Made by a program: the position numbers and the translations under genes. Of a stretch of DNA of 64,000 bases, positions 55,883 to 58,027 are shown piece by piece. The notes under the pieces are model-generated. The model searched no databases and had not been told where the DNA came from. It saw only the letters and a program-made list of their open reading frames with translations. Source of the stretch: an uncultured Chromatiaceae bacterium (lineage in GTDB: Bacteria; Pseudomonadota; Gammaproteobacteria; Steroidobacterales; GCA-2729495); assembly GCA_964403135.1 (NCBI GenBank), contig CAYOFE010000001.1:1647-65646 (forward strand). Direction: 5' to 3'. The first letter of the stretch is position 1; each line of letters starts with the position of its first letter.

Positions 55883-58027
55883 TCAGTACACGTCGTGCAC
55901 CGTGTTGTACACGTTGAATTTGCCGGTCGGCGTGACAAGCTTCGGGTCCTTGATGACTTTCTTCAGCTTGCGGGTCTTGTCGTCCACCACCACGACGGCC
56001 GACTCCTCCTCCTTGCCGCTCCACACCGAGAACCACACCTCGTCGCCGGCCTTGTTGTACTCCGGCTGCACGATGCGCTTCGGGCCCGGACCAAGCTTTG
56101 CCCACTCACCGATCGGCAGCACCTTGTAGCCGGCATCGAGGTTGTCGATGTCAAACACGGCAACGGACTGGCTGATCGCCGCCTCGGGATTCAACGGCGT
56201 GTCGACCCACAGGTTCTTCGACTTCGGGTGGGTCTTGACGAACAACGATCCGCCGCCCTGCCCGTGCAGAACCTTGACCACTTTCCATGCATACTGTGCA
56301 TGGCGGTCAGGATCCGTGCCGATCAGCGTAATCTTGTCGTTGCCGAGCGCGCTCGTGACCCATACGGGCCCGTAGTCTTTATGGACGAAATTCGCGCCGC
56401 GCCCGGGGTGCGGAATCTTGTCCACCGGGATGCGCGCGGTAAGCTTGCGCTCCTTCGAGTCCACGACCACGATCATGTCCGATTGATTCGCCGCAGTGAG
56501 GAAGTAGCGCAGCGTCGAATCCCAGCCGCCGTCGTGCAGGAAACGCGCGGCGTCGATGGTGGTGATACCGAGGTTTTCGACGTCGGCGTAGTTGACCAGC
56601 AGGATGCGCCCGGTCTCCTTGACGTTGACGATGAACTCCGGGTGCTGGTGCGAGGCGACGATCGCCGCCACGCGGGGCTCGGGGTGATACTCCTGCGTGT
56701 CGACTGTCATGCCGCGCGTCGAGACAATTTTCAACGGCTCAAGGGTGGCGCCGTCCATGATCACGAACTGCGGCGGCCAGTAGGATCCGGCGATAGCGTA
56801 CTTGTCTTCGTAGCCTTTGTACTTGGAGGTTTCGACGGAACGCGCCTCCAGGCCGACACGGATCTCGGCCACGGTCTGCGGCGGATCCATCCACAGGTCG
56901 ATCAGGTTGATCTTGCCGTCGCGGCCGATGGTGAAGTCGTAGCGGCCGGAGTGTGACAGCCGTGAAATGTGCACCGCATAGCCGGTCTTGATGATGTTAT
57001 TGATCTGCTTGGTGTCGCCATCCATCAACGCGACTTCACCACTGTCGCGAAGCGTCACGGAGAAGGTGTTGTCGAGATTGAGCTTGTTCTGGGGCGACTT
57101 CGGGCGCTGTTCGACCGGCACCAGCACCTTCCACGACGCCCGCATTTCCGGCATGCCCCACTCTGGCGGCTGCGGCGGCTCATGTTGCAGGAAACGTGCC
57201 ATCAGGTCGATATCGGCGTCCGACAACTCGCCCGATGTTCCCCAGTTCGGCATGCCTGCCGGGGAGCCGAACTTGATCAGCGCCTTCAGGTACTCCGTGC
57301 CCTTGGCCCGTGTCAGGTCGGGCGTGAGTGGCTTGCCCGTCGCGCCTTTGCGCAGCACGCCGTGACAGCCGGCGCAGCGCTCGAAAAAGATCTGCTTGCC
57401 GCGGACAAACTCGGTTTCCGACACAGACGGTGCGCCGGGAGTGACGCGCACGGTCGCTTCGGCAACCTGCGACGGTTGAGACTGATAGGCCTGCTCGGCC
57501 TCTCCGGTGCCCGGATGACGCTGGCCGGCGGCTTGCCTGGCCTCGAGCCCGGAGGCCTTGCGATACTGCGCCACCTTGCTCATCTGCACCGTGCCACCCG
57601 GATTGCCCCAGCTATTCAGCACATAGGTGATGATTGCCGCGAGATCCTTGTCAGTCAGGTAATTCATCGCCGGCATGACGTTGTTGTATTCGACGCCGTT
57701 GACGACCATCTTTCCCTGGCGCCCCTTGAGCGTGATGTCCAGCAGCACTTCCGGGTCTCGCGCGATGAAGTCGGATTTCGCCAGCGGCGGAAATGCCCCC
57801 GGCAGACCCTGCCCGTTCGGCTGGTGGCAGGCGGCGCAGTTTTGCAGGAACAGCTGCTCGCCGCGCTTCATCCAGTCGGCGCTGGGCTTGCTCTTCGAGA
57901 TCGCACCGGCCACCTCGGCCATGTGAACCAGCGGCTGGCCGCTATCGGCAGCCTGAACCATGAATGCCGTGGTGCCGGCAATTCCTGCCACGATGACCAC
58001 CGAAACCAGAGATGCTCGAACTCGCAT
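55883..58027 (-). CDS. nirS: Cytochrome cd1 nitrite reductase paralogue with an additional N-terminal class I cytochrome c domain
   Basis: Start moved to ATG 58027 (signal peptide). Extra domain carries CAACH (57824-57838), followed by a Q/A/G-rich linker. A complete NirS follows ([16 protein letters not shown]-terminal [16 protein letters not shown]). 714 aa. Confidence 0.85.

Follow-up and report, generated by a model that had tools for sequence, protein, structure and literature searches.

A cytochrome cd1 nitrite reductase with a second cytochrome c domain has been described in Chloroflexi, where Schwartz et al. (2022, MicrobiologyOpen; PMC8756737) presented C1-C2-NirS as previously unreported and unique to that group, and suggested for C1 a function like that of NirM. 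Pold et al. (2024; PMC10999283) put the Chloroflexi fusion in NirS clade 1g and did not discuss a gammaproteobacterial fusion; helper genes are recorded in the supplement to that study only within 10 kb. Here we analyse nirS2, a gene for a tri-domain (c-c-d1) nitrite reductase, in a 64,000-nucleotide stretch (the window) of contig CAYOFE010000001.1 (assembly GCA_964403135.1) from an uncultured Chromatiaceae bacterium of the Gammaproteobacteria. We consider it likely that the nirS2 product is a periplasmic cytochrome cd1 nitrite reductase of the Pseudomonas aeruginosa type whose N-terminal arm is extended by an extra cytochrome c domain (C1), and that electrons would be relayed via C1 to the canonical cytochrome c domain (C2).

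Architecture and distribution of the c-c-d1 fusion

An initial annotation, made from the DNA letters alone, had described an extra class I cytochrome c domain ahead of a complete NirS, in a product of 714 amino acids (aa) as compared with 564 aa for the neighbouring NirS. Both lengths agree with the open reading frames (ORFs). The minus-strand ORF at 55883..58111 has 742 open codons; the ATG at 58027, which is preceded by GGAG and at which a hydrophobic signal peptide begins, gives the 714-aa product. Within this one frame, Pfam finds Cytochrom_C (residues 54-140), Cytochrome_CBB3 (209-280) and Cytochrom_D1 (317-709; 483.5 bits, profile positions 2-368 of 368). The motifs listed for the extra domain and for the CAGCH haem c domain are present in the translation, with CAACH at residues 64-68, VMPAM (including M118) and CAGCH at 218-222. 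CAGCHG, LHD and PHPGRG, defined in the supplement of Pold et al. (2024) as motifs that distinguish NirS from NirF and NirN, are all three found as well. There is no lipobox in the signal peptide of nirS2; 4 of 56 relatives have one.

The NirS part had been assigned to the P. aeruginosa type, and it aligns without gaps (residues 177-714) to residues 6-543 of the mature P. aeruginosa enzyme (1NIR; 889 bits, ~70% identity). Because the alignment is gapless, a constant offset of 171 maps P. aeruginosa residues onto nirS2. The haem c residues Cys47, Cys50, His51 and Met88 correspond to C218, C221, H222 and M259, all of them invariant among the 56 relatives; the proximal d1 ligand His182 corresponds to H353 and the distal His327 and His369 to H498 and H540, each conserved in 56/56. 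Tyr10 is represented by Tyr181, which is kept in 50 of the 56. We take Arg156, Arg198, Arg225, Arg372 and Tyr245 to be further d1 contacts in the P. aeruginosa enzyme; their counterparts R327, R369, R396, R543 and Y416 are all invariant or nearly so. In C1, residues C64, C67, H68 and M118 are invariant across the same relatives. Since the 1NIR alignment begins at residue 177, the linker between C1 and C2 is partly the P. aeruginosa N-terminal arm, with C1 at the arm tip.

An AlphaFold2 (AF2) monomer model of the product has a predicted local distance difference test score (pLDDT) of 78 and a predicted template-modelling score (pTM) of 0.67. C1 (pLDDT 70-93) and the propeller are folded in the model, and linker residues 164-192 are disordered (pLDDT <50). 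A Foldseek comparison with 1NIR gives a target-normalised template-modelling (TM) score of 0.87; no solved structure covering all three domains was found by Foldseek, the best query-normalised TM being 0.67. Predicted docking of C1 onto C2-d1 scored 0.01, as compared with a mark of 0.32, a result that speaks neither for nor against such docking. The N-terminal arm of P. aeruginosa NirS crosses to the partner subunit, and if this arm swap holds in nirS2, C1 of one subunit would sit near the other subunit.

A fusion seen in a draft assembly of 250 contigs could be a misassembly, or a missed frameshift, that joins a separate nirM/nirC-like gene to nirS, and the initial annotation had flagged positions 57400-57600 (residues 144-205) for this reason. 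We scanned one genome per GTDB species, which gave at least 593 relatives, and took the 80 best as loci, all from different assemblies and species. In 80/80 of these loci, across different assemblers and with closed genomes included, the propeller and the two CXXCH motifs ahead of it, which are spaced 150-157 residues apart, are encoded in one uninterrupted frame. The carriers include Pseudoxanthomonas koreensis TDY-1 (closed genome), Arenimonas malthae, Aquimonas voraii, Marinicella litoralis, Pseudidiomarina donghaiensis, several Wenzhouxiangella, and many metagenome-assembled genomes (MAGs) labelled Steroidobacteraceae, Woeseiaceae and Lysobacterales. The nearest relatives, 82-88% identical, are MAGs labelled Chromatiaceae, and a closed genome of the same genus as the window (G502) carries the same tri-domain gene. 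The ratio of non-synonymous to synonymous substitution rates (dN/dS) relative to the nearest orthologues is 0.14-0.2 for C1, 0.06-0.16 for the linker and 0.05-0.14 for C2 and d1; these values are rough because dS is near saturation. All four regions, including the conserved linker, are under purifying selection. Because the same frame recurs in 80/80 loci, each of a different species, and its Pfam content is shared by at least 120 protein clusters, we rule out an assembly artefact or frameshift as the source of the fusion and regard its residual probability as negligible.

The rarity that had been implied for the c-c-d1 architecture did not survive a wider search. Searching proteins with C1 alone (392-1250 aa, E <= 1e-10) returned 1710 clusters; the best 120 of these all have PF00034, PF13442 and PF02239, and all are c-c-d1 proteins of 645-740 aa except for two truncated entries (392 and 423 aa). 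Their public names are 'nitrite reductase' or 'cytochrome D1 domain-containing protein'. The architecture is thus represented in no fewer than 80 species and 120 protein clusters, and a Chloroflexi case was published in 2022. It is common but not characterised, in that our literature search found no biochemistry. The architecture as such is known, and the gammaproteobacterial clade itself appears undescribed. The c-c-d1 form is not confined to Chloroflexi and is widespread in Gammaproteobacteria, which corrects the literature on this point.

On a tree of the C2-d1 region (71 rows; IQ-TREE quick, LG+G4), the 33 gammaproteobacterial tri-domain proteins fall in a single clade (SH-aLRT 97), and the two-domain representative P0004, of the P. 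aeruginosa type, is its sister (support 88). We propose that the fusion arose once, at the base of this clade. Other c-c-d1, c-c-c-d1 and c-c-d1-c forms are scattered on the tree, where the architecture labels need at least nine changes. The C1 of one c-c-d1 representative, P0009, is without detectable similarity to that of nirS2, and the C1 of P0019 is 31% identical to it. Because these forms are scattered and the P0009 domain is unrelated, extra c domains have been gained or lost repeatedly. We note that NirS in P0006, P0030, P0007 and P0028 is either c-c-d1 with a C-terminal cytochrome c (~790-810 aa) or c-c-c-d1 (~790-830 aa).

Identity of C1 and its putative role in electron entry

In three-domain copper nitrite reductases, a tethered cytochrome c is the built-in donor to type 1 copper. 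The best solved relatives of C1 are these tethered domains: those of the Ralstonia pickettii enzyme (3ZIY and others) match it with E = 2e-35 and that of the Pseudoalteromonas haloplanktis enzyme (2ZOO) with E = 1e-31. Thermus cytochrome c552 reaches E = 3e-19. Counted on the alignment, C1 and the tethered copper nitrite reductase domain share 54 identities in 102 aligned columns (~53%). Because C1 is homologous to the copper enzyme domain, NirK and NirS, the two unrelated nitric oxide (NO)-forming nitrite reductases, carry the same cytochrome module as a tethered domain. We rejected C1 as a c551-type cytochrome, as it scored 33 bits with NCBIfam cytochro_C551, far below the cut-off of 118. 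Among the short database proteins that match C1, convincing free cytochromes are few; most of these proteins are fragments at contig ends that carry a nitrite reductase annotation.

The homology to the copper nitrite reductase donor domain is the strongest support for a relay role, which it makes plausible, and C1 is probably a built-in electron relay. By analogy with the copper enzymes, C1 would act as an electron-entry module fed by periplasmic or membrane donors. At the nirS2 locus, candidate donors are an amicyanin-like cupredoxin and a NirT-linked haem protein; elsewhere they might be generic c-type cytochromes. C1 would hand electrons, over the range allowed by a flexible linker, to the canonical haem c of C2, and C2 would in turn reduce haem d1, the predicted site of conversion of nitrite to NO. 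A C1 module shared by NirK and NirS amounts to a concrete, testable model of electron entry.

A different role for C1 has to be weighed here. C1 might serve a partner other than the cd1 core, such as an NO reductase, or the core might reduce oxygen or hydroxylamine, or carry a tetrapyrrole other than d1. Many tri-domain carriers are described as aerobes, most lack d1 biosynthesis genes, and genes for qNor, NnrS and Crp/Fnr proteins lie near nirS in 9-16 of 81 loci. A similar possibility has been raised by Schwartz et al. for the Chloroflexi enzyme (PMC8756737). Set against this are the ~70% identity to a proven nitrite reductase, the invariance of the haem c and d1 ligands and of the distal histidines, the origin of the closest C1 relatives as donor domains of another nitrite reductase, and two carriers in which the full d1 pathway lies within a few kilobases of the gene. 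On balance, we think another purpose for C1 or for the core improbable.

Several points nonetheless weigh against the relay as we read it, in which nirS2 is predicted to be a nitrite reductase served by C1. Our literature search found no experiment or biochemical work on any tri-domain NirS, so the electron path is drawn by analogy with a different enzyme. With a pTM of 0.67 and a disordered linker, the AF2 monomer model gives C1 no fixed position. Among the 80 loci, the cupredoxin-nirT context is common only to L089, a Chromatiaceae MAG. The cupredoxin gene lies directly upstream, and the nirS2 enzyme is therefore probably not independent of soluble carriers. Lastly, nirF, nirN, nirJ and nirDLGH were not found in the source genome, which is 97.75% complete. 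The initial annotation had proposed a built-in donor that could free the enzyme from c551 or azurin. The relay half of that proposal is plausible, but the independence half is doubtful at this locus: since a quinol dehydrogenase, a haem protein and a blue copper protein are encoded directly upstream, a C1 fed by these carriers is likelier than a carrier-free enzyme.

Haem d1 supply and the receptor beside nirS

Nearly all carriers are without haem d1 biosynthesis genes, and how the tri-domain clade obtains haem d1 is the more interesting question that the locus raises. D1-domain matches in the source genome are the two NirS only, with no NirJ above cut-off and no AsnC_trans_reg2 (sirohaem decarboxylase). 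The d1 biosynthesis genes were likewise not found in the closed genome G502 or in five further carriers, which include three isolates and a closed genome, and 48 of 50 further carrier genomes have no NirF, NirN or NirDLGH (sirohaem decarboxylase). Because a closed genome and other carriers lack these genes too, their absence is not an effect of incomplete assembly. The other two of the 50, L056 and L071, have nirF-like, nirDLGH and nirN-like genes within a few kilobases of the tri-domain nirS (divergent in L056). Detection of these genes validates the search, so that the two genomes serve as internal positive controls, and such proximity is as expected of a true d1 enzyme.

The same pattern is seen at broader sampling. 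Exactly one D1 match, in a frame of 679-822 aa, is present in 18 of 61 sampled genomes of the window's order, closed genomes included; G506, of the same order, has only a two-piece D1 match. No intact NirF or NirN beside a NirS was found among the 61. Sampling across the class gave 3-6 D1-domain matches for genomes with canonical NirS, and G393 has a tri-domain NirS together with three D1 matches. No claim made here depends on the unpublished genomes G042, G120, G265 and G275. Neither nirM, nirC nor the haem d1 biosynthesis genes usually accompany the tri-domain clade.

A TonB-dependent receptor of the haem type adjoins nirS in 66 of 81 loci (L021-L094; for example L040:3630-5861, L037 and L065), mostly within 200 bp. 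A representative adjacent receptor scores 322 bits with TonB-hemin (TIGR01785; cut-off 316.85); among solved structures, the haem receptor PhuR matches it best (E = 1e-78). In five of the nearest relatives a different receptor, siderophore-like by NCBIfam, lies beside nirS, which brings the loci with an adjacent receptor of either type to 71 of 81. No receptor adjoins nirS in L056 or L071, the two loci that carry d1 genes. The haem-type receptor is next to a 518-aa protein in 37 loci and an Alginate_exp-like porin is found in 28; neither Pfam nor NCBIfam matches the 518-aa protein, and the source genome encodes no homologue of it.

Taken together, the lack of d1 genes and the adjacent receptor suggest import of haem d1, and this locus fits less well than most. 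Our reading of nirS2 could accordingly be extended as follows: (i) the tri-domain enzyme is a true cd1; and (ii) the haem d1, or late precursor, with which it matures comes from other bacteria and enters via the TonB receptor. On this view the tri-domain clade would be a transferable and self-contained nitrite reductase module, with electron entry built in. Crossing the outer membrane would suffice, because NirS is loaded in the periplasm. The invariant d1 pocket and the purifying selection on the gene are consistent with this extension, as are the missing pathway in most carriers and the receptor counts given above. Against it, there is no receptor beside nirS2 in the window. We sought a hemin-type receptor in the source genome and found no orthologue of that of the carriers, nor any receptor above the TonB-hemin cut-off; contig C15 carries an orthologue (62-69% identical) of the second receptor type of the relatives, and contig C47 carries one of the porin frequently located after nirS. 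The receptor could also serve ordinary haem or iron supply, and our literature search found no paper on d1 uptake and no transport experiment. Pure cultures of some Pseudoxanthomonas species are said to convert nitrite to N2O, which would argue against an obligate external supply if the same enzyme is involved; for the Pseudoxanthomonas and Arenimonas carriers, the search found nothing on nitrite phenotype. We hold the import of haem d1 as a tentative idea, with less than even confidence.

More doubtful still is the general form of this idea, in which the tri-domain clade would be a nitrite reductase that has shed its accessory genes, the fused cytochrome replacing a dedicated donor and haem d1 coming via the receptor from neighbouring denitrifiers rather than from the cell's own synthesis. 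If it were true, haem d1 would be a shared public good, and counts of nirS would overestimate autonomous denitrifiers. Cofactor scavenging would change the reading of nirS surveys and add d1 to the cofactors that are traded.

The nir neighbourhood and comparison with known systems

The features of the locus are collected in Table 1. On the minus strand, their order is nirS1, a terminator-like hairpin, nirT, the gene for an EB_dh haem protein, the amicyanin-like cupredoxin gene and nirS2.

Table 1. Features of the nirS2 locus, with positions in the window
Feature	Position	Strand	Basis and remarks
nirS2, tri-domain (c-c-d1) nitrite reductase gene	55883..58027	(-)	714 aa plus stop; single open frame and Pfam
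Sec-type signal peptide, residues 1-26	57950..58027	(-)	Read from sequence; putative cleavage after VQA; pLDDT <50
C1, extra class I cytochrome c domain, residues ~41-160	57548..57907	(-)	Pfam Cytochrom_C
Linker, residues 161-205	57413..57547	(-)	~45 residues, A/Q/G-rich; includes Tyr181, the Tyr10 counterpart
C2, canonical NirS cytochrome c domain, residues 206-300	57128..57412	(-)	Pfam Cytochrome_CBB3; C218, C221, H222, M259
d1 eight-bladed propeller, residues 301-714	55886..57127	(-)	Cytochrom_D1; H353 proximal, H498 and H540 distal
nirS1, canonical two-domain NirS	60100..61794	(-)	564 aa, counted from M89 of a longer ORF
Terminator-like G+C hairpin between nirS1 and nirT	60052..60074	(-)	Nine G-C pairs then CTTTTG; consensus match only
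NapC/NirT tetrahaem quinol dehydrogenase	59415..60011	(-)	Pfam Cytochrom_NNT 255 bits; NCBIfam napC_nirT 308.1, cut-off 310.6
EB_dh-domain haem protein	58476..59345	(-)	Pfam EB_dh 123 bits; CAACH and CWETCH motifs
Amicyanin-like cupredoxin, candidate external donor	58135..58464	(-)	Pfam Copper-bind; NCBIfam amicyanin match below cut-off

nirS1 is 56% identical to nirS2. It had been assigned to another clade with a longer c-domain insertion, and the C2-d1 tree and the 1NIR alignment agree: nirS1 and its L089 orthologue fall in a clade separate from nirS2, and nirS1 aligns with 1NIR only from residue 25, has the c-domain insertion and is missing the Tyr10 arm. The cupredoxin gene, which encodes a signal peptide and a CGPHPEM copper-ligand motif, ends 107 nucleotides upstream of nirS2; its start is M68 of a longer ORF, and the L089 orthologue has the same start. 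We take its position to be that of nirM in the nirSTBM order of P. stutzeri. The EB_dh haem protein is kept in L089 (78% identity). It occupies the nirB position, and its CWETCH motif (CX3CH) suggests an unusual c-type haem site. The arrangement nirS1-nirT-haem protein-cupredoxin-nirS2, with no adjacent receptor, is a variant that any general model must accommodate.

Several further observations concern the surroundings. Downstream of nirS2, an M13 peptidase gene (53742-55668, plus strand) looks broken: M13_N lies in ORF 54428-55615, the catalytic domain is reduced to its last 80 positions, which are in another frame (55174-55668), and a 229-aa ORF with no family match precedes them. An exported His-rich protein (52370-53722, minus strand) has a sub-threshold match to CbiX, a class II chelatase (E = 0.03), and no PDB match; it is not near nirS in the other 80 loci. 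Elsewhere in the source genome, qNor is present, and no NosZ or NarG was found above cut-off. A UbiD-family decarboxylase gene lies beside the nir cluster (62000-63535), and contigs C7, C50 and C218/C156 encode three ~940-aa type II dimethyl sulfoxide (DMSO)-reductase paralogues with a partial NarG match. The DMSO-reductase paralogues and the UbiD decarboxylase hint that the organism may oxidise aromatic compounds or hydrocarbons anaerobically.

Of the described systems, the Chloroflexi C1-C2-NirS (RJP53747.1) is like nirS2 in having an extra cytochrome c, the NirS cytochrome c and the d1 propeller in that order, in the donor-like role proposed for its C1, and in having no nir accessory genes nearby. 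Compared by its published description, it differs in belonging to clade 1g, whereas nirS2 is in the gammaproteobacterial clade. The tethers of the R. pickettii (3ZIY) and P. haloplanktis (2ZOO) copper nitrite reductases share with C1 the haem-binding and GLPG-FPPLA-SDF motifs and fusion to an NO-forming nitrite reductase. There, however, the core is a cupredoxin trimer, unrelated to the cd1 propeller of nirS2, the tether is C-terminal rather than N-terminal, and the acceptor is type 1 copper, where in nirS2 it would be another haem c. P. aeruginosa NirS (1NIR, 1BL9) has the Tyr10 arm, the His/Met haem c ligands, His182, His327/His369 and the fold in common with nirS2. In contrast to that enzyme, nirS2 has an extra N-terminal cytochrome c domain and linker (~170 residues), its neighbours are the cupredoxin, the EB_dh haem protein and NirT, and nirM, nirC, nirF, nirDLGH, nirJ and nirN were found neither beside the gene nor in the genome. 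Cytochrome c551 (NirM), azurin and pseudoazurin deliver electrons to the NirS c domain, which is the role proposed here for C1; C1 is not a c551 and, unlike these soluble donors, is covalently tethered to the enzyme that it would serve.

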